Positions 13,128-60,040 of a stretch of DNA of 64,000 nucleotides are shown one piece after another. Position numbers and translations under genes: made by a program. The stretch lies in NCBI GenBank assembly GCA_035347995.1, contig DAOPQD010000006.1, positions 1,019-65,018 of the forward strand. Reading direction: 5' to 3'. Source of the DNA: Anaerolineae bacterium. Lineage in GTDB: Bacteria; Chloroflexota; Anaerolineae; B4-G1; SLSP01. How positions within the stretch are numbered: position 1 is the first letter of the stretch; every line of letters begins with the position of its first letter. The notes under the pieces were generated by a model. That model made no database searches. It was not told the DNA's origin and saw nothing but the letters and a program-made list of their open reading frames with translations.

Positions 13128-13194
13128 TCACCCGCTCCTTTCCTTGCTTGGGGGCTTGGGGGAAGGGGTCGGTGAATTTTATTGGCTTATGTCA

Positions 13195-13217
13195 GGCTGG
13201 GGAGTTCATCCCCAGCC
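13195..13217 (+). terminator. Hairpin GGCTGGGGA-gttcat-CCCCAGCC followed by a T-rich tract, between convergent MFS and prmC genes
   Basis: Seen directly. Confidence 0.4.
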
Positions 13218-14124: not shown

Positions 14125-14160
14125 TTCTTTTATACTTCCCACGGTCACAATCTTTCATTA

Positions 14161-16560: not shown

Positions 16561-16650
16561 CTCCGCAAGCGATAAAGCGAAAAGGCGATAAAGCGAAAAG
16601 GCGAATCACTTACGTTCGCACCTTTACACCTTCACACGTGGACGCCTTCA
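16561..16650. repeat. GAAAAGCG-rich short repeat element, intergenic copy (gcgataaagcgaaaaggcgataaagcgaaaaggcgaatcacttacgttcgcacc...)
   Basis: About 75% identical over ~50 nt to the in-frame copy at 31100..31200. See findings. Confidence 0.4.
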
Positions 16651-16700
16651 CGCCTTATGGCGTCTCCGGTGGCAAGCTGGGGCCGGGGAGTGCGCTTCTC

Positions 16701-27567: not shown

Positions 27568-29630
27568 AGCGCCTCTCGCGCTCCCGTCTCATCGTCCTCG
27601 CCCTGCTCCTCCTCGGTGCGGGGCTACGCCTGGCGGCGCTGGGCGATGTCCCGCCGGGCCTCTACCACGACGAAGCCTTCAACGGGCTGGACGCGCTCCG
27701 GGTCATAGAAGAGGGCGATTTTCCCCTCTATTTCCCCGCGAACAATGGCCGCGAGCCGTTGTTCATTTATCTCATCGCGGCCTCGGTGAGCGTGTTGGGA
27801 CGCTCGCCCCTGGCTGTGCGCCTGCCGTCCTTCTTTGTGGGCTTCCTCACCCTGGCCGCGACCTATGATCTGGCTCGCGTGCTCTTCAATCGCCGGGTGG
27901 GACGCTGGACGCTGGCGGTGCTGGCGGTGACCTTCTGGCACGTGCACCTGAGCCGGATGGGATTCCGCGCGGTGTTACTGCCGCTCTTCACGGCACTTTT
28001 CCTCGCGCAAGCGGCGCGGGGCGTGAAAAGGGGCCGCGCGCGGCACTGGCTCGCGGCGGGTGCACTTTACGGCGGGATGTGGTACACCTACATGGCGGCG
28101 CGCTTCACGCCGATCGCGTTGGGCGTGGTGTTGCTTGTGGCGCTGGCGACCCGGCGCCGCGAGGCGCTGACACATTGGCGCGGCGGGCTGTTGTTTTGCG
28201 CCGCGGCGCTGCTCGTGCTGGCCCCCCTTGGCGCGTACACCCTCCAACATCCCGACATCGTCCTGGCGCGCACCGGGCAGGTGACGATTTTCAGCCCGGA
28301 GATCAACGGCGGCGACCTGTGGGGCACTCTTCTGCGGCACGTCTGGAACACCGCCGCAATGTTCTTCATCCGGGGCGATCGGATCTGGCGGCACAACCTC
28401 GCCTGGCGTCCCGTGTGGGATCCGGCGTTGGGAGTAGCCTTCGTGGTGGGCGTGGGCGTGGCGTTGGGCGGCATTTTTAGCGCAGCGGCGCAGCGGCGCG
28501 GTGTGGGAGAGGGGAAGACTGGCGTACCCCCGTTCTCCTTTGCGATGATCTTGCTGTGGACGGCGGTGATGGTGTTGCCGACATTGCTCGCCGAAGATGC
28601 GCCGCACTTCCTCCGTGGGGTGGGGGTCTTGCCGACGGCGGCTTTGTTCCCGGCGTTGGGCCTGGCGTGGATCGAGTCACGAGTCGCCCCCCACCCATCA
28701 CCCATTACCCATCACCCATTACATTTTACGTTTCACGTCTCACGCATTCCGCAGTACGCAGCACGTCATACATCAATCATATTATTGTGCATTGGACTAT
28801 TTTTCACCACCCACGACTACTTCTTCACCTACGCGCACGCGCCGCTGGCGTATCACTGGCTGGAAGGCGGCGCGGTGGATCTGGCGGGCGCGCTGAACGC
28901 GGCGCGCGGCACGGGCTGGGATGGCGCGCGGATGTTGCATGGGCCGGACAACGGGCGGGTCCTGCTCGTGGACCGCGTCCTCTGGGAGTCGTGGGAGGCC
29001 TTGCCCTTCCTGGTGCCGGAAGAACGGGTGACGTTCTTGCCGTTGGAAACGCCGCCCGCGCTGGACCAGGGACTGACCTTTGCGGTGTGGCCCTACCGCG
29101 ACTGGCAGGCGGAGGTGTTCTCACTTATCGCACGCCCCGCCTATTTGAGCGTTCATTCCGGCCCGCAGGTGCAGGGGGACAAGGACCCGGCACCCTACAC
29201 GGCGGCGTTGCTCATCACGGCGGACTCACGCCCGCCTGTGCCGGAAGCCATCGCGCGCTTTGGCGAGGCGAACGGGGAAATTCTCCTGCGGGCGGCGCTG
29301 GTACGTCCAGACGTCGGGGGATCAACGGTACGGCTGTGGTGGGATTGCGTCACCCCGCTAGCGGCGGACTACACAGTTTACGTGCACTATCTGCGGGACG
29401 GGGAGCTGCTCACCCAACACGACATGCCGCCGGGGGAGGGACATCTGCCGACATCGCATTGGTCGCCGGGCGATCTCATCCTCGACGAGCATTTTCTGCC
29501 GGCGGTGATCCCCGATCCCGCGCGCGATACGCTCCGTGTGGGCTTTTATCGCAGCGATACCGGCGAACCCTTGGGAACGTGGATTGAGGTGGGAGTGATT
29601 GTGGAGAGCGATGAGGCGAAAAGGCGCTAA
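27552..29630 (+). CDS. GT-C fold glycosyltransferase, ArnT/PMT-like (GT39/GT83-type) with C-terminal extracytoplasmic domain
   Basis: ...YHDEAFNGLDALRV...NGREPLFIYLIAASVSV... resembles the ArnT/PMT N-terminal region. Multi-TM. Carries an in-frame low-GC insert at ~28681..28810. Confidence 0.7.
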   Translation: MRADMKRLSRSRLIVLALLLLGAGLRLAALGDVPPGLYHDEAFNGLDALRVIEEGDFPLYFPANNGREPLFIYLIAASVSVLGRSPLAVRLPSFFVGFLTLAATYDLARVLFNRRVGRWTLAVLAVTFWHVHLSRMGFRAVLLPLFTALFLAQAARGVKRGRARHWLAAGALYGGMWYTYMAARFTPIALGVVLLVALATRRREALTHWRGGLLFCAAALLVLAPLGAYTLQHPDIVLARTGQVTIFSPEINGGDLWGTLLRHVWNTAAMFFIRGDRIWRHNLAWRPVWDPALGVAFVVGVGVALGGIFSAAAQRRGVGEGKTGVPPFSFAMILLWTAVMVLPTLLAEDAPHFLRGVGVLPTAALFPALGLAWIESRVAPHPSPITHHPLHFTFHVSRIPQYAARHTSIILLCIGLFFTTHDYFFTYAHAPLAYHWLEGGAVDLAGALNAARGTGWDGARMLHGPDNGRVLLVDRVLWESWEALPFLVPEERVTFLPLETPPALDQGLTFAVWPYRDWQAEVFSLIARPAYLSVHSGPQVQGDKDPAPYTAALLITADSRPPVPEAIARFGEANGEILLRAALVRPDVGGSTVRLWWDCVTPLAADYTVYVHYLRDGELLTQHDMPPGEGHLPTSHWSPGDLILDEHFLPAVIPDPARDTLRVGFYRSDTGEPLGTWIEVGVIVESDEAKRR

Positions 29631-29700
29631 AGCGAAGAGACGTTCACTCGCTTTCTCGCTCACTCGATTTTTCGCTCAACCACTCAATGTGAAGCAGATG
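29615..29700. repeat. GAAAAGCG-rich repeat element forming a hairpin across the stop codon of the GT-C gene
   Basis: gcgaaaaggcgctaaagcgaagagacgttcactcgctttctcgctcactcgatttttcgc. The second half is the reverse complement of the element seen in-frame at 31455..31535. Confidence 0.4.
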
Positions 29701-30425: not shown

Positions 30426-33400
30426 ATGTCAACATCCAGCTCTTCCCGCATGACGCATTCCGCATCGCGCCTTACGTTTTACGCATTTCTATTCCTCCTT
30501 CCCCTCCTTGCAGCCTTTCCGCTGTGGGGACCGGGGATGGTGAATACGCGCGGCGGCGGCGACAGCCCCTTTCTGCTGCAGCGCACGCTGGATATGGCCG
30601 AAAATCTGCGTCACGGCATTTTCCCCGCGCGCTGGATGGCGCACGCTGCCTATGACCTGGGATATCCGTTCTTCAATCATTACGCCGCGCTGCCCTTCTA
30701 CCTGAGCGGCGGTCTGACGGCGTTGGGCCTCTCACCCCTGCTGGCGATCCAGGCGACGCAGACGCTGGGCTTCCTCCTCGCCGCGCTGACGCTGGCCTTG
30801 TGGGCGCGGCGCGTCTACGGCAACCGATGGGCCACGCTGCTGGCGGTCGCGGCGTACACCTTCGCGCCATTCCATCTGGTGAACGTCTACGTGCGCGGCG
30901 ATTCGCTCTCCGAATTTTGGGCCTTCGTCTGGTATCCTCTCATCCTGTGGACGCTGGATCGCGTCGCCGAGCACCCCACGCTGCGCCGGGTCACCCTTGC
31001 TGCGCTGAGCTACGCTGCCCTGATCCTCACGCACAACGTCTCGGCGTTCATCTTCGCGCCGTTCGCGCTGTTGTATGCAGCAATTCAACGAGTTGGCGAG
31101 TCAACGCAGCAGCGAGAAGGCGAAAAGGCGGAAAAGCGAGAAGGCAAGTCAGCGAATCGCATTTCACGCAGCACGCAGTACGTAGTACGCCTTATCGCTC
31201 CTTTCCTCCTTGCCTTCCTTCTCACGGCCTGGTTCTGGATTCCCGCCATCGGCGAGACGGGCTACGGGCAGATGGGACCGGAGTTCACGGCGGGATATTT
31301 CCATTACAGCAACCACTTTCGCGGCCTGAACCTCGTACAGCGCACGTTCTTGTTTGACTATTCGGTCGCCGGCGACGCTGCCGCTGCTGGCCCTTTTGCG
31401 ATGGGAGGAGTGCAGGCGGCGCTGGCGCTGCTTGGCGCGGGCGCGTTGATTTGGCAAATCGGCGAGTCAGCGAAAAAGCGAGAAAGCGAGTCAGCGACTC
31501 ACATCTTACGCAGCACGCAGTACGCCTTCATCCTTTTCTCCCTGGGTCTCTCCACGTTCATGATCACCCCGCTCTCCGCGCCGTTGTGGGAACATCTGCC
31601 GCTGCTGGCGACCACCCAATTCCCCTGGCGCTTCCTCTCCGTGCAGGCGCTCTTCACGGCCATGGCGACGGCGGCGCTAGCAAATCGGCGGGAAGGCGAA
31701 AAAGCGGAGAAGCGAGAAAGCGACTCACGTTTCGCGCAGCACGCAGTCCCGGCCTTCCTGATTGTTTGCCTCGCGTTGGCTGCCCTCGGCGCGCTCCGTC
31801 CCGAACGCCTGCTCATCACCGCCGACGATGTGACATGGGACCCCCTGCTGCTCTACGAGGCGTTCACCGGCAACATCGGCACGACGATCCGCTATGAGTA
31901 TCTCCCGCGCGACGTGAAGCCGCGCCTGTATCTCTCCGAGGCGGTCGTAGATGGTGTGGACGCGGCGCAGCCCATCGCCGATGGCGGCGTGATGGCGACG
32001 GCGGTGCTCCTCGAGCGCCTCCCCGATCGCCAGACCTGGCAGCTCACGGCGGCCGGCGACGCTCCGGTGACGTTCCCCCTTATCTGGTGGCCGGGCTGGC
32101 AGGCGGAGGTGGACGGCGTCGTCGCCGACGCCTATCCCATGACCGGCTCCGGCCGGTTGACGGTGGACTTGCCGGCGGGGGAGCACACGGTCACGCTGCA
32201 GCTGCGCGCTACCCCGCTCCGCGCGGCGGCGGAGTGGATTTCGGCACTGACGGTCGTGGGGCTATGCGCGGTGTTTTTTCAGCACAGAGGTGTCGAGGCG
32301 CGAAGACGCAAAGAGCTGGCCGACTTTTTGAAAGCTGGCCTTGGATCCACAGGAGCGCTTTTGTCGGTGGCCGCGCTGGCAGTGATTCTCCCTGCCCTCT
32401 TCTCCCCCTCTTCCTCTCTCCCTTTCTCCCTCTCTCCTGCTCCCGCCACCTTCGACTTCATCCAAATGCCTTGGGCCACGCGCGGACCGGTCTATTTTGG
32501 CACGCCATGGCACGCGCAGTTGGGAACGGGCGATGCTGTGCTCACCGCCGTCGGCGCGCTGCCCCATGGGGTTTCCCCCGCTCAAATGCTCCCTGTCCCG
32601 CTGACGTGGGAGCTGCCCACCCCCAAGTCCATCACGGCTACCCTGCGTCTGGTTTCGCCGGCGGAGCCCCGTCATGGCGTCTCCTACGGCCTCGCGGAAA
32701 CGACGTTCACGCTGGCCGGGCAGGTCACGCCGACGCTGGAATTGCCGGCCGATCTCTCTCGCGGCCTGTATCTGCTCGAATTGCGCGTCTTCGGCATAGA
32801 TGGCGAGCTGCCGGCGCGCACGGCTACCGGCGCGGAGCGGGGCGCGCTCTACCTCGGTGCGGTGCGGGTGACGCAGGGACCTTCGCTGCCCGCGGACGCG
32901 CCTGTGCTGGCGCGCTTCCGCGATCTGACGCTGCACACCGTCGAAGTGCAGCCGCCCGATCCGACGACGTTGCGGCTGAAACTGCACTGGTCGCTGGCGC
33001 AGCGGACCCCGCGCAACTGGAGCCTCTCGCTGCGGCTGCTCGACGCGGACGGACGGCAGCTCAGTCAGGCGGATCTGCAGCCCGGCTACGGCTATTTGCC
33101 CACCACACTCTGGCAGGCGGGCGAGCTCGTCACGGATTACCCCACGCTCTCACTGCCGGAAGGGCTGGCCCCTGGCGACTACACGCTGCACGTGATTTCC
33201 TACCTCGAGGCGACGATGGAGACCGGCGGCGAGGTCGCGCTGCCCCTCGAGCTCACGGGGGTAACGGTGCGCGATCCGCGCGAACGCTGTTGCGAGTGGC
33301 AATACCGCGAGGAACAGACCCTGTGCGCGGCCGGCGGTGTGACTCTCATCAGCCTGGCGCTGCCGGAGGCGCATCCCGAAGGGGCGGCGCTGGAGTTCAC

Positions 33401-34100
33401 CGCCGAGTGGTACGCCGCCGCGCCCCCTTCCGCCGATCTGATCGCTCGCTGGGAGGCGCTGGATGCGGCGGGGAACGGCGTCGCGACGTGCGAGGGCCCC
33501 CTCGCGCCCGGCTCGCGCACCTCTGCGTGGCCTCGCTTCGCGTGGGTGCGCGCCCCGGTGACACTCGCACTCCCGCCGCTGCTGCCCGATGGCCCCTACA
33601 CGCTGCGTCTGACGCTGCTCGCAGAGGGCGCCATCACCCAGACCTGCGAGCTGGGCGCGCTGAACATCGTCCCACGCCCGCGCAGCTTCACCTTGCCCGC
33701 GCCGACCTATCCCCAACAGGCGGCCTTCGGCGGCGAGCTGCGCTTACTCGGCTACGACCTCAGCCGCGACGCCGACACGCTTCGGGTGACGCTGTGGTGG
33801 CAGGCGCAGACCGTTCCCGCGCGCGACTACAAGCGCTTCGTCCACGTGATTGCCCCCTCTGGGGACATTCTCGCGCAGGACGACGCCATGCCCCGCGCGT
33901 GGACCTATCCTACCAGCTGGTGGGCCGCCGGTGAAGTCGTGAGCGAGACGGTGACGTTGCCTGCGCCGCCCGGCGACTATCGCCTGGGCGTGGGCTGGTA
34001 TGACGGCGACACCGGCGTGACGTTGCCGGCGACCGCCGCCGACGGGACACCGTGGGCCGATAATCGCGTCCTGCTGAATGCTGCGGCGCCTTCGAAATAG
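30426..34100 (+). CDS. Large GT-C-like membrane glycosyltransferase-family protein (1224 aa) with four tandem ~110-aa C-terminal extracytoplasmic repeats
   Basis: Multi-TM N-terminal domain with GT-C-like loops. C-terminal repeats share the L.WW...DY....PTS.W..GE.V.D...L.LP....PGDY.L.VG.YD pattern also found once at the C-terminus of 27552..29630. Three in-frame repeat-element copies. Confidence 0.6.
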   Translation: MSTSSSSRMTHSASRLTFYAFLFLLPLLAAFPLWGPGMVNTRGGGDSPFLLQRTLDMAENLRHGIFPARWMAHAAYDLGYPFFNHYAALPFYLSGGLTALGLSPLLAIQATQTLGFLLAALTLALWARRVYGNRWATLLAVAAYTFAPFHLVNVYVRGDSLSEFWAFVWYPLILWTLDRVAEHPTLRRVTLAALSYAALILTHNVSAFIFAPFALLYAAIQRVGESTQQREGEKAEKREGKSANRISRSTQYVVRLIAPFLLAFLLTAWFWIPAIGETGYGQMGPEFTAGYFHYSNHFRGLNLVQRTFLFDYSVAGDAAAAGPFAMGGVQAALALLGAGALIWQIGESAKKRESESATHILRSTQYAFILFSLGLSTFMITPLSAPLWEHLPLLATTQFPWRFLSVQALFTAMATAALANRREGEKAEKRESDSRFAQHAVPAFLIVCLALAALGALRPERLLITADDVTWDPLLLYEAFTGNIGTTIRYEYLPRDVKPRLYLSEAVVDGVDAAQPIADGGVMATAVLLERLPDRQTWQLTAAGDAPVTFPLIWWPGWQAEVDGVVADAYPMTGSGRLTVDLPAGEHTVTLQLRATPLRAAAEWISALTVVGLCAVFFQHRGVEARRRKELADFLKAGLGSTGALLSVAALAVILPALFSPSSSLPFSLSPAPATFDFIQMPWATRGPVYFGTPWHAQLGTGDAVLTAVGALPHGVSPAQMLPVPLTWELPTPKSITATLRLVSPAEPRHGVSYGLAETTFTLAGQVTPTLELPADLSRGLYLLELRVFGIDGELPARTATGAERGALYLGAVRVTQGPSLPADAPVLARFRDLTLHTVEVQPPDPTTLRLKLHWSLAQRTPRNWSLSLRLLDADGRQLSQADLQPGYGYLPTTLWQAGELVTDYPTLSLPEGLAPGDYTLHVISYLEATMETGGEVALPLELTGVTVRDPRERCCEWQYREEQTLCAAGGVTLISLALPEAHPEGAALEFTAEWYAAAPPSADLIARWEALDAAGNGVATCEGPLAPGSRTSAWPRFAWVRAPVTLALPPLLPDGPYTLRLTLLAEGAITQTCELGALNIVPRPRSFTLPAPTYPQQAAFGGELRLLGYDLSRDADTLRVTLWWQAQTVPARDYKRFVHVIAPSGDILAQDDAMPRAWTYPTSWWAAGEVVSETVTLPAPPGDYRLGVGWYDGDTGVTLPATAADGTPWADNRVLLNAAAPSK

Positions 34101-42345: not shown

Positions 42346-42373
42346 GGGGCAACATCCCATGTTGCCCCTTTTT
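42346..42373 (+). terminator. Intrinsic terminator after rpoC (GGGGCAACAT-ccc-ATGTTGCCCC + TTTTT)
   Basis: Seen directly. Confidence 0.7.
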
Positions 42374-42419
42374 GCAACCCCGCGACCTGCCGTGCGTATT
42401 AGAAACGAGGGACAAAGGC

Positions 42420-43031: not shown

Positions 43032-43545
43032 GGGATGGTGGATCAAGGTACTGGATGGCGAGTTGACCTCGGAAGAACAGGCTGATTGGGAGCAGCACCT
43101 GCGCGACTGCGCGCGTTGCCGTGCGGATTGGGAAGCCCTGGCCCGGCTGGACACGGCGTTGCGTCGGGCGCTGCTGCCCGCCCCGCCGGTGGGTCTGGCG
43201 CTCAAGACCACGGCGCAGGCGGCGGCCAGCTACCGACGGCGGCGGTCGTGGCTGCTGCTGGGGGTGGTGGCGTTGACGGTGTTGCTCGGCGCGGCGGGTA
43301 TGGTGGCCTTGGGGATAGCGTACTGGGACTTCAACCGCATTCTCGCCGTGATGCTGTTCTCCAGGGAAGTGCTGTTCGAGGCCTTGATCCAGACGTTGGT
43401 GGGGCTGATGGCGGCAGGGCACTCCTTCTCGCTGTTGGCGCTGGCACTGGCGGCAGCGTTGCTGGCCCTGTTCATGCCCCATGGCGTGCTGGCCACGATC
43501 ACCATGGTGATGCTGCGGCGGCAGCGTGAAGCGATCTCGGCATAA
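43009..43545 (+). CDS. Anti-sigma factor (zf-HC2 type, HLRDCARCRADWEAL) with transmembrane segments
   Basis: H-x3-C-x2-C motif. Overlaps the sigma gene's 3' end. Hydrophobic C-terminal half. Confidence 0.7.
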   Translation: MMWDMHSEGWWIKVLDGELTSEEQADWEQHLRDCARCRADWEALARLDTALRRALLPAPPVGLALKTTAQAAASYRRRRSWLLLGVVALTVLLGAAGMVALGIAYWDFNRILAVMLFSREVLFEALIQTLVGLMAAGHSFSLLALALAAALLALFMPHGVLATITMVMLRRQREAISA

Positions 43546-43754
43546 GTGGGTGACGACATTTTGTTCGTGGAATTCTGACGGAGGCGCCGGTTGGAGGAAA
43601 AAGTGGCTGGCTTTAGCGCGGAGAGGATCTGCACGAAAAATCCGTGCGCCGGCGACGCAAGCGGGCGTCGGCGCAACTTTGAGCGCTTCAGAACGTAGAA
43701 GTAAGAAGGAGACGCCATGTGTTGGCGCACATCATCCAAGGATGAAAATGTGCG

Positions 43755-44055
43755 GTAACTGTTCAGCCTGGCGTCAGGTAGCTAGACGGCGATGGATGAA
43801 CCTTTGTGAACTGTAGCTTTTGCCCCACCCCCTGCCCCCTCCCCAACGGCGTCTGCGCCGTTGGGGAGGGGGAGAAAAAAATTGGGGCTTTGCAGGCGGG
43901 CGTAGCCCGCCTGCAAAGCCCCACAAAAAAAGTTCCCCTTCCCCCCGCGCTGCGCGGGGGGAAGGGGCCAGGGGATAGGGGGCAAAAGTTGATTCTCAAT
44001 CTTCAGCAATCACCAGGAAATCTTGCGTTTTTTAGTCAGTGGCTGAACAGTTACC
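43755..44055 (-). mobile_element. MITE-like triple-hairpin element, copy B (perfect 13-bp TIR GTAACTGTTCAGC / GCTGAACAGTTAC)
   Basis: Reverse complement aligns along its length with copies at 14161..14483 and 48118..48428. Interrupts a family-2 leader repeat. Confidence 0.6.
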
Positions 44056-44434
44056 CTGTGAGCCATAGCCCGTGAGCAGAGGCTGCAACAGCTCACCGCT
44101 GCGGCTGGGGATGGAATCCCCAGCCTGACAGGAGCCAACCGCGCTGAAGCGCGTTGTTTGAGGACGTAACAGCCCCGGGGGCCAGGAATTTCTCATCTGA
44201 TTCGTGAAATTCGTGTTCATTCGGGGCCATTTTTGCAGGAGACGCCAGGTGCTGGCGCACCTCATCCAAGGCTGAAAATGTGAGTCGTGAGCAGCGACGG
44301 CGACGGCTTACGGGTTCGACACGAGCCACCCACGCTGAAGCGCGTTGTTTGAGAGCGTAGCAGCCCGGGGGTAAGAAATTTCTGATCTGATTCGTGAAAT
44401 TCGTGCCCATTCGGGGCCATTTTCGAAGGAGGTA
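44056..44434 (+). repeat. Family-2 conserved leader repeat, one and a half tandem units, ending in AAGGAGG RBS of the downstream gene (a further fragment at 43706..43754 lies left of the MITE)
   Basis: Shares the blocks GCTGAAGCGCGTTGTTTGAG, TTCTGATCYGATTCGTGAAATYCGTG and GCCATTTT with the reverse complements of 50669..50910 and 54809..54975. The CCCGGAATTCATTCCGGG hairpin of copies b and c is reduced here to a cattcgggg remnant. Confidence 0.5.
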
Positions 44435-44437
44435 GTG

Positions 44438-45646
44438 ATGTTGAAGCGCGTGATTTTCGCAAGTATGGCGGCTTTGTTGCTGCTGACAGCAGCGTCCCCC
44501 GTCTGGGCCGCACAGGGAGGGACGGGCGGGGTTCATTTCGGACCCTACACTCTGGCGCCGGGCGATAGCATCACCGGCGACCTGGTGGTTTTCGGGCCGG
44601 TGACGTTGGGCCAGGGGTCGAGCCTTACCGGCGATCTGACCACTTTTGGCGCATTGGAGATACGTGAAGAGGCCACCGTCCGTGGCGACGTCGCGGTGTT
44701 CGGCGCGGCGGATATCGCCGGAACGGTGGAGGGTGACGTCTTCTCCGCCGGGGAGTTGCGTTTGGGCAGCACGGCGCACATCCAGGGCGATGTGTCCTCA
44801 ACGGGGGCAGTGGTCCAGGAGGAGGGCGCGGTCGTCGAGGGTGAAATCCAGAAGGTGGAGCGCATTCAGGGTTTCAACTGGAATTACCGGTTTGGACCGA
44901 GCATGTTTGATAATGGCGATGGGCCGGAGCCACCCATCAGCGGGACGCAACCTTCACAGCCGCTATGGCTGCAGGCGCTGTGGAAAGTGGTGCGCAGTGT
45001 GTTGACAATTGTGGTGTTGGGGCTGTTCGCGCTTTTCTTCGTGAGCCTCTGGCCTCAACACGTAGGGCGTGTGGCGGAGACGATCATGAATGTGCCGCTG
45101 CCCGCGTTTGGAGTGGGGCTGTTGGTCTTCATCGGCGCGGCCTTGGTGCTGCTGATCCTGGTGATCACTATCTGCCTGAGCCCGTTGGCGGTGGTCGGCG
45201 CTCTCATCGTGGGCGTGGGGGCGGCGTTGGGATGGGTGGCGCTGGGCTCGGTGCTCGGCGAGCGCGTGCTGCACGGGATTTTCAAGGTGGAGCAGGCATC
45301 GCCTGTGGCGACGGCCGTGCTGGGCACTGTCTTGCTCACGATATTGGCGGTGCTCGTGCAGGTGACGTGGGACTGGCTGCCCCTCATCTTGATCTGGCCG
45401 TTGATCGCGCTGGGGGTCGGTGCGGTCACGCTGACGCAGTTTGGGACGCGGCCCTATGCGGCGACGGGTGCGGCGCTCCCGCCCGCGGCGCCGCCGGCAA
45501 TCCCTTCGCGCCGCCCCGTCGCGCCGGTCAGCCCGGCTTCGCCGGCGCCGGCTCCCGTCGCACCGGCAGCGCCTGAGGCACCTGAGGTACCTGAGGCACC
45601 TGACGCAGAGGTTCTGCCCTCACCTTTGGGCGAGGATGCTCCCTGA
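44438..45646 (+). CDS. Membrane protein with signal peptide, beta-helical bactofilin/DUF4097-like repeat domain, 4-5 TM helices and Pro/Ala-rich C-terminus
   Basis: Repeats of G(D/E)(L/V).V.G.V pattern (ITGDLVVFGPVTLGQGSSLTGDLTTFGALEIREEATVRGDVAVFG...). Immediately downstream of the ECF sigma / anti-sigma pair. Confidence 0.6.
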   Translation: MLKRVIFASMAALLLLTAASPVWAAQGGTGGVHFGPYTLAPGDSITGDLVVFGPVTLGQGSSLTGDLTTFGALEIREEATVRGDVAVFGAADIAGTVEGDVFSAGELRLGSTAHIQGDVSSTGAVVQEEGAVVEGEIQKVERIQGFNWNYRFGPSMFDNGDGPEPPISGTQPSQPLWLQALWKVVRSVLTIVVLGLFALFFVSLWPQHVGRVAETIMNVPLPAFGVGLLVFIGAALVLLILVITICLSPLAVVGALIVGVGAALGWVALGSVLGERVLHGIFKVEQASPVATAVLGTVLLTILAVLVQVTWDWLPLILIWPLIALGVGAVTLTQFGTRPYAATGAALPPAAPPAIPSRRPVAPVSPASPAPAPVAPAAPEAPEVPEAPDAEVLPSPLGEDAP

Positions 45647-48082: not shown

Positions 48083-48117
48083 ACGTTTGCTATTTTTCAC
48101 ATAGTGGAAGTCTTTTT

Positions 48118-48428
48118 GTAACTGTTCAGCCACCAACTAAGAAACGGCATAGATTTTCGAGCAATTGCTGAAGATTGAGAATTAAATCCTGTTATACACA
48201 CAATTTCTTGCCCCCTATCCCCTGCCCCCGCGCTACGGGGGCAGGGGAACTTTTTTTTGTGGGGTTTTGCAGGCGGGCGCCGCCCGCCTGCAAAACCCCT
48301 TATTTTTCTCCCCCTCTCCAGCCGCATATGCGTCGCTGGGGAGGGGGCAGAGGGTGGAGCGAAAGCTACGGATTACAAAGGTTCGTTCATTGTCATCTGG
48401 GTAGTTGGCGCCAGGCGGAGCAGTTACC
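48118..48428 (+). mobile_element. MITE-like triple-hairpin element, copy C (TIR GTAACTGTTCAGCC / GGAGCAGTTACC)
   Basis: Aligns with copies A and B. Hairpin 1 differs in stem sequence (CCTGCCCCC vs CCTTCCCCCC) with compensating changes on the other arm. Confidence 0.6.
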
Positions 48429-49120: not shown

Positions 49121-50629
49121 TCAGGTGGAATTTCGCAGCACCAGCGGCAGGTAAAGCCAGGAGGAAACTTCGCGATATTCGTAGGCGCCGATGTCGGGGC
49201 GCGCATTGCGGGGATGGTTCTCCAGGTCCACAGTCGGGGCGCCCTCAGCGCTGCCGGCGTTGATCGCCGGGCTGCCCGTCTGCAGGTGATAGTCGCCCGT
49301 CTCGCCCCAGGCCGGGCGCACGAAGCGCGGGTCGCCGCAGGCGTTCCCCTCGCCCAGGGAGGCGATGTTTTCACAGGTGAAGGCCGTCTCGCCGTGGGTC
49401 AGGAGGGTCGTGTTCTGTGGCAGGTAGAAGAGGTTGTGGTCGGCCATCACGGTGCTCGCTGGGTTGATGTAGAGGGGACAGTCGGACCCGCGCCCGCTGA
49501 AGACCGTGTTGCGCAGCGTCAGCTGCACCGGCACGGGATTGTCGTACTGCACGTACAGGAGATAGTTCTGCCCCACGTAGTCATCCACGGTGACGTTGAC
49601 GATCTCGAAATGGGCGTTCGCTTGCTCCACCTGGTCAATGACGATGGCGGCCCAGGGCGTCGTTTCGGCGTTGCCGTCGCCGCGGCCATAGATGAGGGTG
49701 TTCTCCACACGGCTGCCGTCGGCCCAGACCTTCACCCCATCGCAGGAGTTGTTGGCGACAACGCAACGGCGGATGGTGGTGTTGGCGGCCTTGGAGTCCA
49801 GCCCGTCGCCGTAGTTGTGCTCGGCGACGGTGTCTTCAATCAGGATGGGGCCCTGGGCCGGCTCGATGCCGAAACCGTCGGGGCGGTCGTAGGGGCGGGT
49901 GGAGCCGTCGCCGCCCTGATAATAGTGGCCGCTCCAGGAAAGGGAGCAGCCGCGGATGGTGACGTTGCGCCAGCCGCCGTGCTCCCCCGCCGGCCCGCCC
50001 AACGCGCCGAAGCCGGCGTACTCGATGCGACAGTTGAGGATTTGCAGGTCGTCCACATCCTGGATGTTCATCCCGAATTCATCCACATGGTGGATGGTGA
50101 GGTCTTGCAGAACGATGTGGGCAGAGGGCGCGCCCAGGATTTCTACCCCCTCGCGGAACCACAGCGCCTCGCCGGTAGCCTGATCGTCGTGGGTGATCTC
50201 CAGGTTCTGGATGCGGACGTACTGGATGCCGGACAGGTTGATGGCGGTGAGCAGGTTATCGCGCCCGGCCAGGACGGGGCGGTGGCCCTCCTCGCCCTGG
50301 ATGGTGATCCAGGCGGAGGCAGTGCCGGAGGGCGGGGTGAGGATGTCGGCGTCGTACTCGCTCAAGGTGTAACGCCCGTCGAGGATGATGAGCGTATCGC
50401 CGGGGGCCAGTTGGCGGGAGCCGTAGCCGGGGGTGGCCCAGGGCTGCTCGCGGCTGCCGGGATGGGCGTTGTCGCCGTTCGGAGCGACGTAGAACGTGTG
50501 GCCACCGGTCACGACGGTCGCCTCCTCAGGCGTCGGCGGCGAGGCAGCGGTCGGTGCGGGCGGAGTGGAGAAGGTGCAGGCAAGGAGCAGGGGGAGGGTC
50601 AGAGCCGCGAAAAAACATCGAATTCGCAT
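49121..50629 (-). CDS. Secreted right-handed parallel beta-helix protein ending in ...LYLPLVLRNST
   Basis: Signal peptide MRIRCFFAALTLPLLLAC. Beta-helix repeats (...IQNLEITHDD..., NCRIEYAGFG..., IRGCSLSWSGH...). GAGGAGG RBS 6 nt before the ATG at 50629. Confidence 0.75.
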   Translation of the reverse strand: MRIRCFFAALTLPLLLACTFSTPPAPTAASPPTPEEATVVTGGHTFYVAPNGDNAHPGSREQPWATPGYGSRQLAPGDTLIILDGRYTLSEYDADILTPPSGTASAWITIQGEEGHRPVLAGRDNLLTAINLSGIQYVRIQNLEITHDDQATGEALWFREGVEILGAPSAHIVLQDLTIHHVDEFGMNIQDVDDLQILNCRIEYAGFGALGGPAGEHGGWRNVTIRGCSLSWSGHYYQGGDGSTRPYDRPDGFGIEPAQGPILIEDTVAEHNYGDGLDSKAANTTIRRCVVANNSCDGVKVWADGSRVENTLIYGRGDGNAETTPWAAIVIDQVEQANAHFEIVNVTVDDYVGQNYLLYVQYDNPVPVQLTLRNTVFSGRGSDCPLYINPASTVMADHNLFYLPQNTTLLTHGETAFTCENIASLGEGNACGDPRFVRPAWGETGDYHLQTGSPAINAGSAEGAPTVDLENHPRNARPDIGAYEYREVSSWLYLPLVLRNST

Positions 50630-50668
50630 GAGGGCCTCCTCGAAAATCAGCAAATCGGCAAATCTCAA

Positions 50669-50910
50669 AATTACTTGCGTGGCAAATGTAACGCGAACTT
50701 CAGGCCGCTCTCAGGCCGTCCCGAATGAATTCCGGGTCTGCCATGTGAGGCCCGCTGAAGCAGGCTTCCAAACAACGCGCTTCAGCGCGGTTGGCTCGTG
50801 TCGGGCTGAGGATGGAATCCCCAGCCGCCCCGTGAGCCGTCGCTGTCGCTGCTCACGACGCACATTTTCATGCTTGCGGGGTGTGCGCCCGCACATGGCG
50901 TCACCTGCCC
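50669..50910 (-). repeat. Family-2 conserved leader repeat upstream of the beta-helix gene (copy b)
   Basis: Reverse complement contains GCTGAAGCGCGTTGTTTG, the CCCGGAATTCATTCGGG hairpin and the GAGGAGG RBS, as in copies a and c. Confidence 0.5.
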
Positions 50911-50964: not shown

Positions 50965-51237
50965 TCAATAGTTTCTCAACACCAGCGGCAGGTAGACGCC
51001 GTATCCGCCGCCGCACCAATAGCCCAGGCAGCCCTTATAGGTCGTGCTGAAGCCACTGCCGATGGCCGTCTGACCGACGGTGAAGTTGACGGCATAGTGA
51101 GCCGAACTGGCCGCTCCCCCGCTGCCGGTCAGCGGGGTGAACCAGTCCAGGCGGTAGTTGGGGGAAGACATCGCCAGGGCGCGGCCGGCCAGGAGGAACA
51201 GGACAGCCAGAGTCAGCAGAATTGCTATCCGTTTCAT
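50965..51237 (-). CDS. Small secreted Gly-rich protein (90 aa) ending in ...VYLPLVLRNY
   Basis: Signal peptide MKRIAILLTLAVLFLLAGRALA. C-terminal tail shared with two neighbours. Confidence 0.6.
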   Translation of the reverse strand: MKRIAILLTLAVLFLLAGRALAMSSPNYRLDWFTPLTGSGGAASSAHYAVNFTVGQTAIGSGFSTTYKGCLGYWCGGGYGVYLPLVLRNY

Positions 51238-52624: not shown

Positions 52625-54808
52625 TCAGTAGTTCCGTAACACCAGCGGCAGGTACAGGTAGACGAATCTCCCCTCGTCCGCCCCGACGTCGGGTGACGGG
52701 CCGATAGGCCGGGGGTCGCCGTCTATGTCCCGCCTGACCCAGGTCAGCAGCAGGGCGTGGTCAGCGGCGTTGGAGCCGAACCGGAGATGATAGTCGGGCA
52801 ACAGCCTCGCCGGGCCGGACACTTCGTTCGTGCTGGTGACCCCCGGGCTGTAGTTGCTTTCGTTGCCCTCGAACAACGTATAATCGGCCGTGACCGTGCT
52901 GGTAGGCGACGCAGTGTTGGTGATGCCCACCGTCTGACTCACGATGAGGTTGTTGTACAGGAGCACCTTGCTATTGCCGCCGACATACACTCCGACCCCA
53001 TCGCCGCTCAGGTTGGCGACGAGGGTGTTGTGCGCCATTCGCCCTCTGATGAGCCCACTGTTGACAATCGCCACGCCGCTGCCGGTGGCGCTGACCGCGT
53101 TGCGCGCGATGATGTTGTTGGTCAGCGTGAAGACGTGGCACGAAGCTACCCGCACCCCGCCACCGTTGCCAGTTGTGGCGCCGCTGGCCTGATTATCCAG
53201 GATGGTGTTGCCTTCCAGCCACGGCCTGGCGCCCGAGAGCGCAAAGCCGCCGCCGAAACCTGTGCCCCCGTAACTGGTGGTGTTGCTGAGGACCTCGTTG
53301 CCGACGAAGCGGGGCGTGCCTCCCCGGACATCGACCCCGCCTCCTGCGCCCCAGCCCTCAGGAGCAGAGTTGGCGACGTTCTGGGCGATGCGGTTATCCT
53401 GAACCAGGACCACGCTCCTCGAGATCGCCATCCCGCCGCCCCAGCCCCAGCCGCCCCCCGCGCCCAGCACGGCCATGTTGTCGGTGATGATGTTCTCCTC
53501 GAGCAATCCGCCCCCGCCGTTGACGTAGAAGCCGCCGCCGTAGCCGGGGGTCTTGGACGAGGCGATATTATCGAACACCCGATTAGCCATCACCGTGGCG
53601 TAGCAGTCGTCCAGATAGAGGCCGCCGCCGTTGCCGTCAGCGACGTAACTGGCGCGGTTGTCATCGGCCACCACGTTCCCGCTCACCTCCGCTGCGGCAG
53701 ATAGGTTGTGCAGATACATCCCCCCACCCAGGCCGCGTTGGTCCAGCAAGGTGGCGACGTTGCCATAGACCCGGTTGTCGCGGATGACGGCCAGCGGGCC
53801 GTCGAAGAAAATGCCGCCGCCGCGGCTGAAGAGTCCCGGATCGGCCGTACCCTTGAGAGCGACATTGCCCTGGATCAGGTTGCGCTCTATCGTCACCGCC
53901 CTGTCCGAGTCTACGAAGATGCCGCCGCCGTGGGCCATCATATCTTGGCCGGCGACGTTGCGCAGGAGGCGATTGTCGGCAAGGACAGGGCTGCCGCCGA
54001 TCACGGCGATCCCGCCGCCGTTGCCCGCCGAGTGACCGGCGCGGTTGGTCTGGAGGGTATTGGAGAGCACCTGGGGGGAAGCATTCTCCAGATAGATGCC
54101 GCCTCCCCACCCCACGTTGCCGTCGTCGGCCACGTTGTTGGCGATGAGGTTGTTGCTGATGACGGCAGTGGCCGGAGCGTTGACCAGGTAGAGGCCCCCG
54201 CCGCGCCCATAGCCGGTGCAGGCTGCCGTCATGCAACCGTAGTTGCCGGTGATGATGTTATTGGCGATGAGGGGGGCCGCATTCCGCGCCGCGATGCCGC
54301 CGCCGTGGTTGGGGCCGTCCGCCGCGCCGCCCGCATTGCCGCCGGTGATGGTGAAACAGTCAATCGTGGGACTGGACTTGGTGATGCTGATGACCCGTGA
54401 GGTTCCGCTCCCGTCTAGAACCACGTTCTCCGGGTTACAGGCGGTGGGGGCCCAGACCCAATCTGTTCCCACAGGGTTGGGATGAGCCTGCCACGCGCCA
54501 TCCAACGTGACTGTCTTGGTGACGACGATGGGCCCATAAAAGGCGGAGGGCCCGGCGATGTCATCCCGGTCGGCCACACAGATCGTCTCGCCGGCCGATG
54601 CCCACTTCAGGGCGTACTGGATGGATTTACACGGGTTATTGGGGTTGCTGCAGGTATTTTCAGGGCTGTTGTTGCCGCCGTTGACCACATAGCGGTTGCA
54701 CGGCACGGCAGCCTGCGCCTGGATAACGGGGCCCTTCAACGCGAGCACCAACAGGAGCGCCAGTCCCAGGCCAATTCCGATAGCTACCAGTAAACGTAGG
54801 GTACGCAT
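52625..54808 (-). CDS. Secreted right-handed parallel beta-helix repeat protein (727 aa) ending in ...LYLPLVLRNY
   Basis: Signal peptide or N-terminal TM. Many ~22-aa beta-helix coils (G.I...N.I..N..GGGIY...). GAGGAGG RBS. Confidence 0.75.
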   Translation of the reverse strand: MRTLRLLVAIGIGLGLALLLVLALKGPVIQAQAAVPCNRYVVNGGNNSPENTCSNPNNPCKSIQYALKWASAGETICVADRDDIAGPSAFYGPIVVTKTVTLDGAWQAHPNPVGTDWVWAPTACNPENVVLDGSGTSRVISITKSSPTIDCFTITGGNAGGAADGPNHGGGIAARNAAPLIANNIITGNYGCMTAACTGYGRGGGLYLVNAPATAVISNNLIANNVADDGNVGWGGGIYLENASPQVLSNTLQTNRAGHSAGNGGGIAVIGGSPVLADNRLLRNVAGQDMMAHGGGIFVDSDRAVTIERNLIQGNVALKGTADPGLFSRGGGIFFDGPLAVIRDNRVYGNVATLLDQRGLGGGMYLHNLSAAAEVSGNVVADDNRASYVADGNGGGLYLDDCYATVMANRVFDNIASSKTPGYGGGFYVNGGGGLLEENIITDNMAVLGAGGGWGWGGGMAISRSVVLVQDNRIAQNVANSAPEGWGAGGGVDVRGGTPRFVGNEVLSNTTSYGGTGFGGGFALSGARPWLEGNTILDNQASGATTGNGGGVRVASCHVFTLTNNIIARNAVSATGSGVAIVNSGLIRGRMAHNTLVANLSGDGVGVYVGGNSKVLLYNNLIVSQTVGITNTASPTSTVTADYTLFEGNESNYSPGVTSTNEVSGPARLLPDYHLRFGSNAADHALLLTWVRRDIDGDPRPIGPSPDVGADEGRFVYLYLPLVLRNY

Positions 54809-54975
54809 CTTGTCCTCCTCTTCTAAAATAAAAATGGCTCACAGAGAAACACGGATTTCACGGATCAGAAAAGGTAATGCAAACTTCCGGCTGCTCTCAA
54901 GCCGCCCCGGAATGAATTCCGGGTCTGCTACGTCAAGCGCGCTGAAGCGGACTCCTCAAACAATACGCTCTTTGG
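54809..54975 (-). repeat. Family-2 conserved leader repeat upstream of the 727-aa beta-helix gene (copy c)
   Basis: Reverse complement closely matches copy b over ~100 nt (hairpin CCCGGAATTCATTCCGGG, CTGATCCGTGAAATCCGTG, GCCATTTT, GAGGAGG). Confidence 0.5.
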
Positions 54976-55035
54976 TAGATTGCAGGTCAGTGAGGGGGGC
55001 ACAATCCGACAGCTACATCGGTGGATACGGGGTGG

Positions 55036-55200
55036 CTGGATGCTGGATACTGGATGCTGGATACTGGATACTGGATGCTGGATGCTGGATGCTGGATACT
55101 GGATGCTGGATGCTGGATACTGGATGCTGGATACTGGATGCTGGATGCTGGATGCTGGATACTGGATGCTGGATGCTGGAGGCTGGAGGCTGGATACTGG
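55036..55200. repeat. Heptanucleotide microsatellite (TGGATRC)n, ~23 units
   Basis: ctggatgctggatactggatgctgg... seen directly. Intergenic, ~230 bp upstream of the beta-helix gene start. Confidence 0.8.
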
Positions 55201-55420
55201 CCGTCACTCATTACCCATCACCTATCACTCCCTCCCCCATTACCATCTGCGGTGAGTCCTGGCACAATTTCATTATAGCACGCTTTTTTAGCTGGCGCGC
55301 ATAGAATTTCCTGGCGAGTGCCGCGGCCGCGAGCCTGAGAGCGCCAGGAAACGGCCTCCGCGCGCCGCAACGGCCTCAAGGATGGAGTTGCCTCATCGCG
55401 CTGGCGGGGTGAACGCTTCC

Positions 55421-58087: not shown

Positions 58088-60040
58088 ATGATGGGCAAGA
58101 CGCGGTTTCAACGAGTTGTAGCGCTGTTTTTGGTTATCTTCACTCTAACTTTCGCTTTATCAGGCAGCACGCTACGTGTGACCTCCTCACGGATCGCGGT
58201 TATCGTGCGGGGCGCCACCCTGGAAAGCGCCGCTGTCGCAGTCGCTCAGAACGGCGGGCGGGTGCTGGAGAGCTATCCCATGATTAACGCTGTTTTGGCC
58301 GACATTCCCGTCGCCGCCGGCAATGCTCTCACCGCGGCTGGGGGCGTTGAGGGCGTGTTCCCCAATCACACCGTCGAGGCCGCGGGCGGGCCGATAAGAG
58401 AGGAAGTGGAATTTGCCGAAGCCGTGGGGGCGGCGGACGTGTGGGCCGAGGGCCATCTCGGTCAGGGCGTCACCGTTGCTTTCCTGGACACCGGCATCGA
58501 ACCGCGTTTTGCCAGCCTGCGGCATGGAGCCAATGGGAATCGGCGTATCCTGGCGTACTACGACGCCATCGGCAATAGGCTTTATAAGGAGCCGCATCTG
58601 ATGCAATCGCCGGGCGACCCGAACGGGCACGGCACGCACGTCGCGGGCATTGTCGCCAACAGCACCTACGAACCGCGAAAGGACGCCTATCTGGGCCTGG
58701 CGCCGGCGGTGAACCTGGTGGCGGTGCGTGCCCTGAATGCCGACGGCTCGGGTACTTACGCCGATGTGTTGCGCGGCATTCAGTGGGTCATTGACAACAA
58801 GGACGTTTACAACATCCGCGTGCTCAACATCTCCATGTATGCCCAGTCCCTTGCTCCCTATTGGGCGGACCCCTTCTGTCTGGCCACGATGGCGGCCTGG
58901 AATGCGGGCATCACAGTTGTGGTGAGCGCGGGGAATGGCGGGCCTACGCCGATGAGCATCGGCGTGCCGGGCAACACTCCCTATGTCATCACCGTTGGCG
59001 CTTTCACGGATAATTACACTCCCTCCGATTTCGGCGATGACTACATTCCAGAATTCTCCGCTACGGGGCCCACGCTGGACGCCTTCGTCAAACCGGATGT
59101 GGTCGCGCCCGGTGCGCACATCGTCTCGCTGGCGCGCCATGACACCTATCTGGCCCAGCAGTATCCCGAGAACCGCATCGTCCCCTTCTATTTCAAGACT
59201 GCCGGAACCTCGATGTCGGCGGCGATGGTCTCCGGCGCGGCGGCGTTGATGCTCAGCGCGCATCCGGAATTGACCCCCGATCAGGTGAAGTATCGCCTGA
59301 CGCTCACGGCGCGACCGCAGTTCAGCGAGTACACCGGGGAAGCGGCGTACAGCATCTGGGAGCAGGGCGCCGGGCGCATTTGGATCCCCGATGCCGTCCA
59401 CACGACCATTCAGGGCGTCGCCAATCGCGGCATGGACCTGGCGGCCGACCTCGCGGGCGCAATCCACTATCAGGGCAAGACGGCGTACGATCCAGCAACA
59501 GAGCAGTTCCACATTTTGGGCTATGACACCTGGGCTGGCGGCTACGAGACCTGGGCTGGCGGCTATGAGACCTGGGCTGGCGGTTACGAGACCTGGGCTG
59601 GTGGCACCACTAACTGGTCGGGTGACTTCAATGACTGGGTGGCTGCTTACCAGAGTTGGAGCGATGGCTGGAACGCCTGGGCAGGTGGTTACGAGACGTG
59701 GGCCGGTGGCTACGAGACGTGGGCTGGCGGCTACGAGACGTGGGCTGGCGGCTACGAGACCTGGGCCGGTGGCTATGAAACCTGGGCTGGCGGCTACGAG
59801 ACGTGGGCTGGCGGTTATGAGACGTGGGCTGGCGGCTACGCGACCTGGGCTGGCGGTTATGAGACGTGGGCTGGCGGCTACGAAACCTGGGCTGGTGGCT
59901 ATGAAACCTGGGCTGGTGGCTATGAAACGTGGGCCGGTGCTATCGGAGATCCGACCTGGGCGGCAGCTTTCGTCAACTTGCAGAATGTTCCTGGCAGTAC
60001 CGCCACGGTGGGAGTCAACTGGGTGAATTTTACTGAATAG
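58088..60040 (+). CDS. Secreted subtilisin-like (S8) serine peptidase with C-terminal array of ~17 heptapeptide (ETWAGGY) repeats
   Basis: Signal peptide. Asp (AFLDTGIEP), His (HGTHVAGIV), Ser (GTSMSAAMVSGAAAL) catalytic triad. Repeat array at 59518..59945. Confidence 0.85.
   Translation: MMGKTRFQRVVALFLVIFTLTFALSGSTLRVTSSRIAVIVRGATLESAAVAVAQNGGRVLESYPMINAVLADIPVAAGNALTAAGGVEGVFPNHTVEAAGGPIREEVEFAEAVGAADVWAEGHLGQGVTVAFLDTGIEPRFASLRHGANGNRRILAYYDAIGNRLYKEPHLMQSPGDPNGHGTHVAGIVANSTYEPRKDAYLGLAPAVNLVAVRALNADGSGTYADVLRGIQWVIDNKDVYNIRVLNISMYAQSLAPYWADPFCLATMAAWNAGITVVVSAGNGGPTPMSIGVPGNTPYVITVGAFTDNYTPSDFGDDYIPEFSATGPTLDAFVKPDVVAPGAHIVSLARHDTYLAQQYPENRIVPFYFKTAGTSMSAAMVSGAAALMLSAHPELTPDQVKYRLTLTARPQFSEYTGEAAYSIWEQGAGRIWIPDAVHTTIQGVANRGMDLAADLAGAIHYQGKTAYDPATEQFHILGYDTWAGGYETWAGGYETWAGGYETWAGGTTNWSGDFNDWVAAYQSWSDGWNAWAGGYETWAGGYETWAGGYETWAGGYETWAGGYETWAGGYETWAGGYETWAGGYATWAGGYETWAGGYETWAGGYETWAGGYETWAGAIGDPTWAAAFVNLQNVPGSTATVGVNWVNFTE
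59518..59945 (+). repeat. In-frame 21-nt tandem repeat (ACCTGGGCTGGCGGCTACGAG), ~17 near-perfect units in two blocks
   Basis: Seen directly. Encodes (ETWAGGY)n within the S8 peptidase. Confidence 0.85.

Follow-up and report, generated by a model that had tools for sequence, protein, structure and literature searches.

A polar, modular dispersed repeat abutting Shine-Dalgarno sequences of unrelated genes in an uncultured group of Anaerolineae

The 64,000-nt stretch of DNA analysed in this work, referred to as the window, comes from an Anaerolineae bacterium (assembly GCA_035347995.1, contig DAOPQD010000006.1, positions 1,019 to 65,018 of the forward strand). It holds four to five loci of a modular repeat, and four co-oriented copies of this one sequence, designated A1, A2, B and C, lie 5' of the genes starting at 44438(+), 50629(-) and 54808(-). 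The element is best regarded as a genomic hitch-hiker, found before about 100 unrelated genes in an uncultured group of Anaerolineae, and close relatives differ in the gene starts at which copies have been gained or lost. The explanation favoured here, to which a probability of about 0.7 is given, is that of a lineage-specific, non-autonomous, polar dispersed repeat, composed of optional modules, which is integrated or copied at the Shine-Dalgarno (SD) sequence and carried in 5' untranslated regions (UTRs). An earlier note on the window had taken the same sequences for a shared promoter and structured leader, plausibly the regulon signature of the adjacent extracytoplasmic function (ECF) sigma factor.

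Polarity, spread and modular composition of the repeat

The copies A1, A2, B and C were matched to one another by single-sequence nhmmer at E = 1e-10 to 1e-57, far beyond chance, and the alignment placed their blocks in the same order, so the ordered blocks reported earlier upstream of the three genes were confirmed. The copies abut the SDs of the downstream genes, which read GAAGGAGG for A2 and GAGGAGG for both B and C.

The most conserved 18-mer of the element, GCTGAAGCGCGTTGTTTG, had nine exact matches on eight contigs of one related Anaerolineae metagenome-assembled genome (MAG) among 185,579 GTDB species genomes; the remaining matches among these one-per-species genomes were unrelated chance matches. 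In metagenomes from digester and sludge the 18-mer gave 109 stretches with 133 element matches, corresponding to about 90 distinct copies at 96% de-duplication. Hidden Markov models (HMMs) of the core and of two 3' variants were run over 0.93 Mb of related loci, in which each match was accompanied by at most 10 kb of flanking sequence, and returned 172 arrays at 99 distinct sites (individual loci are given L numbers below). Two scans of viral contigs for element patterns gave no match. At L015, L017, L018 and L009 (MAG Gw_SlDig_bin_283) the copies of the element fall next to runs of N and at contig ends, and short-read assembly of these abundant digester Anaerolineae genomes is evidently broken or collapsed by the repeat.

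Across these loci the element keeps a fixed orientation relative to genes. It was co-oriented with the downstream gene at 81 of the 92 sites where such a gene could be called (binomial p = 1.3e-14), the called start lay 40 nt or less from the end of the array at 59 sites, and a test independent of the gene caller, which itself required GC3 > GC1 > GC2, found that at 71 of 96 sites the array is followed within 75 nt by an SD and an open frame. Many of the seeming exceptions, including several "convergent" calls, were HMM matches ending early or gene-call errors. The fixed polarity and the end at the SD, both asserted in the earlier note, therefore extend to the related loci, which do not present the picture of a plain repeat scattered in both orientations or away from gene starts. 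Within the 48 nt preceding the start codon the sequence reads ...CATTCGGGGCCATTTTCGAAGGAG-N4-9-ATG in the short 3' variant or ...CTGATCTCTATTTTCGAGGAG-N4-9-ATG in the long one, with the spacer of 4-9 nt being variable; ATTTTCNNAGGAG is absent elsewhere in the 64-kb window.

Ten sampled downstream genes represented ten unrelated Pfam families, and the products encoded behind the arrays include Upp, Mrp/NUBPL, a SpoU methylase, TldD, an ABC ATPase, an ABC permease, PurA, a patatin, a Cys/Met PLP enzyme and DegV. On the other side of the array, 21 sites have a co-oriented upstream gene ending no more than 60 nt away, the median distance to divergent upstream genes is 207 nt, and canonical -35/-10 boxes are located just 5' of several copies, e.g. 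at L011, L126 and L040. These promoters, the close co-oriented genes and the distance of the divergent ones fit a promoterless element riding on existing transcripts. To many housekeeping genes the element brings a hairpin-rich leader of 0.1-0.9 kb.

The unit combines a 5' module, which begins with ACGCCATGTGC, with three or four short hairpins rich in GC, tandem repeats of 7 and 8 nt, and either of two 3' modules that terminate in (C/T)ATTTTC. The modules are optional: the 24-nt GGCTGGGGA..TCCCCAGCCT hairpin, for example, is either present or precisely missing, and the 7- and 8-nt tracts differ in length among copies. Many copies are truncated at the 5' end with the 3' end kept constant, and the 3' module, reaching right to the SD, is the best-conserved part of the element. 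About 60% of copies have GGAG-N5-ATG at the 5' end, and the 3' end is followed by an SD core. Orthologous genes of sister species may be preceded by different 3' variants (L018/L113 vs L061; L020 vs L039). Head-to-tail arrays were found at 17 sites. A subfamily with a MITE (miniature inverted-repeat transposable element) nested at the same position (5' module M1, MITE, rest of the unit) occupies 20 distinct sites, which indicates that whole units are copied together with their nested passenger.

A short coding open reading frame (ORF) starting at the 5' ATG was considered and rejected, as many copies have AGG, CTG or GTG in place of the ATG, the frame does not end at one shared stop and the substitutions are mostly non-synonymous. 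In the aligned copies this frame stops at the TGA in GCCTGACA or the TAG in GACGTAGCAG, far before the gene start.

Filled and empty sites

Presence/absence alleles were found at five sites. The window itself is empty at 34081/34111, where it reads ...GCCGCTTTCAAGG|GGGTGGTG, and in L014, L046 and L131 (89-95% identity) the same place is filled by a unit of 277-283 nt in the form ...TTTTCCAGGAG|ACGCCGTGTGC...CTCTATTCTCGGAGG|GGGG. Site 34081 has the SD-like AAGGGGG with no gene behind it, and the filling of such a site argues for the target sequence rather than for selection for gene adjacency. Copy B, whose filled allele in the window is GAGGGCAGGTG|ACGCC...GATTTTCG|AGGAGGCCCTCATG, is missing in L130 and L132, in which the empty allele is GAGGGAAGGAGGTCGTCATG. 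Two further pairs have highly similar flanks: L094 and L077 (98.7% identical) differ by a 396-nt unit including a nested MITE, and L047 and L106 (98.5% identical) differ by 588 nt.

The fifth site precedes the bactofilin-domain gene. In L136-L138 (66-69% protein identity) the order is rpoC, sigma, anti-sigma, SDR and bactofilin, and the spacer of 37-45 nt between the SDR and bactofilin genes, ...AGAAAAGGAGATGGTCATG, is free of the element, so the repeat is not a conserved feature of this locus. One 120-nt unit is present in L134 (an 88% relative) at exactly the left junction seen in the window, and in the window two units and a MITE make up 727 nt, with the SDR gene lost. This gene, of about 320 aa, is present between the anti-sigma and bactofilin genes in sister strains and all relatives; in the window strain it has been lost at 43545-43650, and a remnant of its last ~55 nt is left at 43651-43704, as judged by comparison with L025, L087 and L134.

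An AGG(A/G)G core flanks the insert on both sides at each of the five filled sites, and comparison with the two naive empty sites (copy B and bactofilin) showed an unchanged SD-to-ATG spacing. The family is polymorphic between near-identical strains.

In the favoured explanation the SD motif itself would be the place where the element is integrated, or where it is copied through short-homology recombination or template switching, and the RBS (ribosome-binding site) of the gene would be regenerated in a U-rich context. Such an insertion would be tolerated because the RBS is regenerated, and repeated hits at the regenerated site could produce tandem arrays like A1-A2, with units head to tail. 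Passive transcription of the element, in the 5' UTR or in intercistronic RNA, would then start from any promoter lying upstream, which in the case of the bactofilin gene would be that of the ECF-controlled sigma operon. Any effects on expression would be secondary; the candidates are a weak terminator-like CGCGC-TGAA-GCGCG+UUGUUUG hairpin, the 5' pseudo-RBS with its AUG, and the 5' stem-loops.

A number of observations weigh against this explanation. An identical 12-mer, TTTTCGAAGGAG, is present in about 60% of terminal copies and nowhere else in the window, which suggests from the sequence that the RBS-proximal bases were often brought in or homogenised and are not native to the gene. The difference between L047 and L106 is a segment replacement and resembles recombination between copies rather than a clean insertion, and the "empty" allele of both pairs with highly similar flanks contains a mini-element already. 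What is duplicated at the insert could be either 3-7 nt of the target or an AGGAG carried by the element, which blurs the exact cut site. The units have no terminal inverted repeats (TIRs): the local score of end versus end was no better than for shuffled sequences in A2, B, L014 and A1, and the nested MITE scored 14/14 in the same test. The 5'-truncated copies with a fixed 3' end are not foreseen by simple cut-and-paste. No transposase or recombinase partner and no repeat above 1 kb with the ends of the element were found in the 0.93 Mb of related loci, and a search for an autonomous parent among repeats above 600 nt in the same loci, which include no complete genome, found only element arrays. 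Finally, all loci were gathered by means of one 18-mer and copies without it are under-sampled.

Several of these points could also be explained without any dedicated mobility, by recombination, gene conversion, replication slippage and template switching between copies sharing the ...ATTTTCGAAGGAG end, with selection sparing only those in co-oriented 5' UTRs. The copies are mosaic and circularly ambiguous, the copy number of the 7-/8-nt repeats varies, orthologous genes carry unlike 3' variants, and inversions of hairpin loops, as seen here, are typical of template switching; the segment replacement in L047/L106 and the 5' truncation with fixed 3' ends point in the same direction. Recombination or template switching between copies clearly contributes. 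As the whole explanation it seems unlikely, since the naive empty sites share just ~7 nt (AAGGAGG) with the element, which is too little for RecA-type exchange on both sides, and since each of the ~99 sites before unrelated genes needs a first insertion. The copy at the SD-like site with no gene behind it also indicates that selection alone is insufficient to account for the position.

The family might also be a new kind of non-autonomous mobile element without TIRs, which homes to the SD (AGGAG) in one polarity and regenerates its site, being moved by a site-specific or RNA-guided recombinase or by a polar copying process. The latter was considered on account of the constant 3' end and the varying 5' ends. 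This proposal is a tentative one, and we would sooner doubt it than rely on it. If true, homing to the SD would account for the position at gene starts, the tandem arrays and the tolerance of the host.

Leader RNA, sigma factor and promoter

The leader proposed earlier would be a structured cis-regulatory RNA (riboswitch, attenuator or target of a small RNA), marking secreted and membrane proteins as members of the ECF regulon. All three proteins encoded downstream of the copies in the window do have signal-peptide-like N-termini, the array at 43706 comes after the sigma/anti-sigma pair, and a hairpin followed by a U-run is terminator-like. In the related loci, though, the element precedes cytoplasmic housekeeping genes, and the claim about the kind of target holds for the window only.

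The search for RNA structure was likewise unfavourable to this proposal. No known family was recognised, as only one tRNA passed the Rfam gathering threshold in the whole window and only chance miRNA-type matches to the MITE hairpins appeared at E up to 10 on 43500-44500. The check for covariation in the hairpins covered four helices in 43 distinct copies: 95.9% of the 885 cells pair, one is compensatory and no measure rose above shuffles, a result of low power that does not exclude structure, since the copies are too similar (young). The single compensatory change, from G-C to A-T, is found in the CCCGGAAT/ATTCCGGG hairpin of L095. RNAalifold applied to the 43 copies predicted only six invariant pairs. 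The individual hairpins described in the earlier note are present, but the fold of A2 was no more stable than shuffles (z = 0.15) and that of B only mildly more stable (z = -1.9).

The hairpins appear to be kept by sequence identity. Their loops occur in both orientations, TGGAA in 43 copies versus TTCCA in 11, and TGAA in 94 versus TTCA in 2. Such two-way loops suggest the behaviour of a palindrome at the level of DNA and speak against a loop-specific function of the RNA, as do the optional modules against a structured riboregulator. With the element also missing from the orthologous locus of relatives, a leader RNA marking the ECF regulon is already contradicted by the spectrum of genes and by the empty alleles, and its probability is put very low.

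The sigma factor seems to have a motif of its own outside the element. The TGCAAC-N16-CGTATT sequence 5' of the sigma gene (Table 1) is preceded by a terminator, and both hexamers are conserved in relatives L134, L136 and L138 while the spacer between them varies, which makes it a good footprint of an autoregulated ECF promoter. The bactofilin gene is probably under ECF control, either through membership in the operon or through the second motif, just 5' of the array. No ECF-type motif, defined as (G)CAAC and CGTA spaced by 16-17 nt, was found inside any copy, and Upp, PurA, TldD and other genes are likewise preceded by the element. Rather than being the signature of the sigma factor, the repeat is an insertion that separates the ECF control region from the SD. 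A third GCAAC-N16-CGTAT lies at 26675-26648(-), about 80 nt 5' of a small gene at 26221-26568(-), and is a candidate for a further ECF target.

The element could alternatively be a mobile cassette of promoter and RBS, in which a promoter for an unrecognised sigma factor or activator puts ~100 genes under one signal. The nearest described repeats, REP2 (PMC3184786) and the families of putative mobile promoters (PMPs; PMC3488235), act in this manner, the 3' module is the most conserved one, up to the SD, and a promoter of its own would be useful at the 21 sites situated 60 nt or less from an upstream gene. Consensus scans of the window copies revealed no sigma-70-like promoter, and the 5-bp CGCGC-TGAA-GCGCG+TTGTTTG hairpin, scoring as weakly terminator-like, was the only site of its kind in the copies. 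The shared promoter assumed in the earlier note is further contradicted by the canonical -35/-10 boxes just upstream of the copies in L011, L126 and L040 and by the short distances to upstream genes. Two unlike 3' modules before orthologous genes and copies at the site with no gene behind it are also difficult to reconcile with such a cassette, which we consider rather improbable.

Features of the window and related repeat families

The coordinates are collected in Table 1. The genes around the copies encode RpoC, a SigW-like ECF sigma factor, a zf-HC2 anti-sigma factor, a bactofilin-domain protein, a Pel9A-like beta-helix protein and a 727-aa beta-helix protein, as had been guessed. The tandem arrangement of A1 and A2, head to tail, was also seen correctly, but A1 proved to be split by a 300-nt MITE and two loci of the family were added to those listed before.

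Table 1. Copies of the repeat and associated features in the window.
Feature	Position	Strand	Remarks
Diverged family member	16567..16663	-	GGAG|ACGCCAT, GTGAAGG heptamers, TTCGCYTT 8-mers, SD, ATG (16555); added in this work
Lone hairpin module GGCTGGGGATGAACTCCCCAGCCTGACATAAGCCAA (GGCTGGGGA..TCCCCAGCC)	13182..13217	-	3' of prmC-like gene; added in this work
Candidate ECF-type autoregulatory promoter TGCAAC-N16-CGTATT	42373..42400	+	5' of sigma gene, outside element; -35/-10 conserved in relatives
Second candidate motif GCAAC-N16-CGTA	43672..43699	+	just 5' of array, outside it, inside remnant of deleted SDR gene; found in the window's own clade only
SD-core copy AAGGAG	43706..43711	+	left flank of array; from sequence; AGGAG-type left junction also at other solo copies
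Copy A1, 5' module M1, ACGCCATGTGTTGGCGCAC...GAAAATGTGCG	43712..43754	+	left junction and M1 also present in relative L134
Nested MITE (repeat family 1) within A1	43755..44054	+	300 nt, perfect 14-bp terminal inverted repeats GTAACTGTTCAGCC
Copy A1, remainder	44055..44234	+	alignment, nhmmer
A1/A2 junction GCAGGAG	44235..44241	+	SD-core copy between units
Copy A2	44242..44424	+	head to tail with A1; without GGCTGGGGA hairpin module
Working SD GAAGGAGG of bactofilin-domain gene (ATG 44438)	44425..44432	+	SD-to-ATG spacing as in element-free relatives
Copy B, full unit, long 3' variant	50641..50901	-	nhmmer; empty allele in L130, L132
Copy C, 5'-truncated, 3' modules only	54831..54975	-	nhmmer
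Heptamer tandem repeat (ATCCAGC/ATCCAGT)n	55008..55228	-	between extended -10-like box TGCTATAAT (55280-55272) and copy C

The remainder of A1 contains the hairpins GTGAGC..GCTCAC, GGCTGGGGA-TGGAA-TCCCCAGCC and CGCGCTGAAGCGCG+TTGTTTG, and the short 3' module with the end CCATTTTT. In copy B the long 3' variant has a hairpin with a TTCA loop, the CCCGGAATTCATTCGGG hairpin and short TTTGCYGA repeats; copy B is flanked by a decayed SD copy, CAGGTG, at 50907-50902 and by the working SD, AGGAGG, at 50640-50635. Copy C keeps a remnant of module 3, the TTCA-loop hairpin, a perfect CCCGGAATTCATTCCGGG hairpin and CTGATCCGTGAAATCCGTG...GAGCCATTTT, and relative L067 has an additional 341-nt unit at the position equivalent to its edge, 54830/54831. 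The heptamer tract next to copy C is of the same kind as the 7-/8-nt repeats inside other units.

The MITE nested in A1 belongs to a family of about 300 nt with the same 14-bp TIRs, and sister MITEs are located at 14158-14483 and 48115-48428. All three consist of two or three long GC-rich hairpins followed by runs of A or T and are strongly terminator-like on the minus strand. A perfect 13-bp inverted repeat, CCCTCATCCCTCC/GGAGGGATGAGGG, is situated at 50942-50930 / 50920-50908(-) between a 90-aa gene and copy B; as it is also present in relatives without copy B, it is part of the locus and not of the element.

Long intergenic 7-nt tandem repeats, (ATCCAGC/ATCCAGT)n and CCATCAC/CCATTAC, together with 8-nt repeats, were found at 55008-55228, 28681-28771, 29607-29675 and 30443-30482, and the 7-nt ones recall the heptamer short tandemly repeated repetitive sequences (STRR) of cyanobacteria. 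Three repeats of ~70 nt (31095-31195, 31445-31530 and 31679-31747) lie inside the ORF 30426-34100(+), which encodes a large multi-pass membrane protein. They are of the TTCGCTGA/ACGCAGT type, like the 3' tracts of the element but antisense, stay in frame and encode hydrophilic loops ...GESTQQREGEKAEKREGKSANRISRSTQY..., being reminiscent of the Rickettsia palindromic elements found in coding regions. A 21-nt periodic repeat of at least 14 copies at 59498-59980, inside the ORF 58088-60040, probably represents a repetitive protein segment. Three secreted proteins of unlike length, encoded at 49121-50629(-), 50965-51237(-) and 52625-54808(-), share the C-terminal tail (V/L)YLPLVLRN(Y/ST)*, specified by a conserved 30-nt DNA sequence. 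The tail may be a sorting or anchoring signal, and one of the proteins has the NCBIfam "choice-of-anchor Q" domain.

Among known repeats, BOX, BIME, ERIC, Correia and MITE-type elements resemble the Anaerolineae repeat in being small, non-coding, multi-copy, modular (boxA-boxB(n)-boxC), hairpin-forming and transcribed together with nearby genes. Terminal inverted repeats and a TA duplication characterise the Correia and ERIC elements, and REP/BIME sequences are located mostly 3' of genes. To our knowledge, there is no report of BOX, BIME, ERIC, Correia or MITE-type elements lying against the SD with a single polarity at the majority of their sites. With a classical MITE the element shares the small size, lack of coding capacity, multiple copies and filled/empty alleles, but not the terminal inverted repeats. 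Polarity, hairpins and the absence of TIRs are shared with integron attC sites, IS200/IS605 derivatives (PATE) and IS110 bridge-RNA derivatives; no membership in these groups is claimed.

The closest likeness, based on organisation and not on sequence, is to the Neisseria REP2/CREN repeats and the similar IR sequences of Borrelia, which are dispersed, TIR-less, provided with stem-loops and RBS/ATG-like sequences and located in co-oriented 5' UTRs of unrelated ORFs. REP2/CREN repeats are 120-150 bp or more in length, have no terminal inverted repeats, and carry two stem-loops, a promoter, an RBS and an ATG immediately upstream of ORFs; the origin and mode of proliferation of REP2/CREN and of the Borrelia IR sequences are unknown (PMC3184786). 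REP2 is present in ~25 copies, its promoter has been demonstrated and its genes form a coherent regulon induced by contact (Parkhill 2000; Morelle 2003; reviewed by Delihas 2011, PMC3184786). The element described here, in contrast, occupies ~100 or more sites without a recognisable promoter or functional coherence, and adds optional modules, head-to-tail arrays, nested MITEs and tracts of short tandem repeats.

PMPs are conserved from -5 to -120 of unrelated coding sequences (CDSs), in families of up to 93 members (Matus-Garcia et al. 2012, PMC3488235). The element has the properties by which they are operationally defined, namely a homologous stretch of at least 50 nt, at least 80% identical, that precedes non-homologous CDSs and is conserved from a few bases ahead of the start codon (PMC3488235). 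PMPs are a descriptive class without a mechanism, to which the element adds filled and empty alleles, duplication of the SD core and tandem arrays; Chloroflexota are absent from the text of the PMP paper (PMC3488235; 0 matches).

The mycobacterial interspersed repetitive units (MIRU) offer a further parallel in being intercistronic in operons, part of polycistronic mRNA, of one orientation and variable in tandem number, with filled and empty sites and short direct repeats (PMC3184786). MIRU are 40-100 bp long and contain small ORFs overlapping the flanking stop and start codons (Supply 1997, summarised in PMC3184786), whereas the frame from the 5' AUG of the element stops inside the unit and its peptide is not conserved. 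Literature searches for published work on SD-targeting MITEs or on Anaerolineae repeats gave nothing specific. By operational definition the element is a REP2-/PMP-like repeat, save that no promoter is detectable.

Repeats carrying or abutting an RBS before unrelated genes have been known before, as REP2 and as "mobile promoters", and the way in which they proliferate is an open question. The Anaerolineae element can mislead the inference of motifs and regulons, as happened in the earlier note. Its abundance, its polymorphism between strains and the SD core on both of its flanks make it a natural system well suited to the question of whether ribosome-binding sites are targeted by such repeats.

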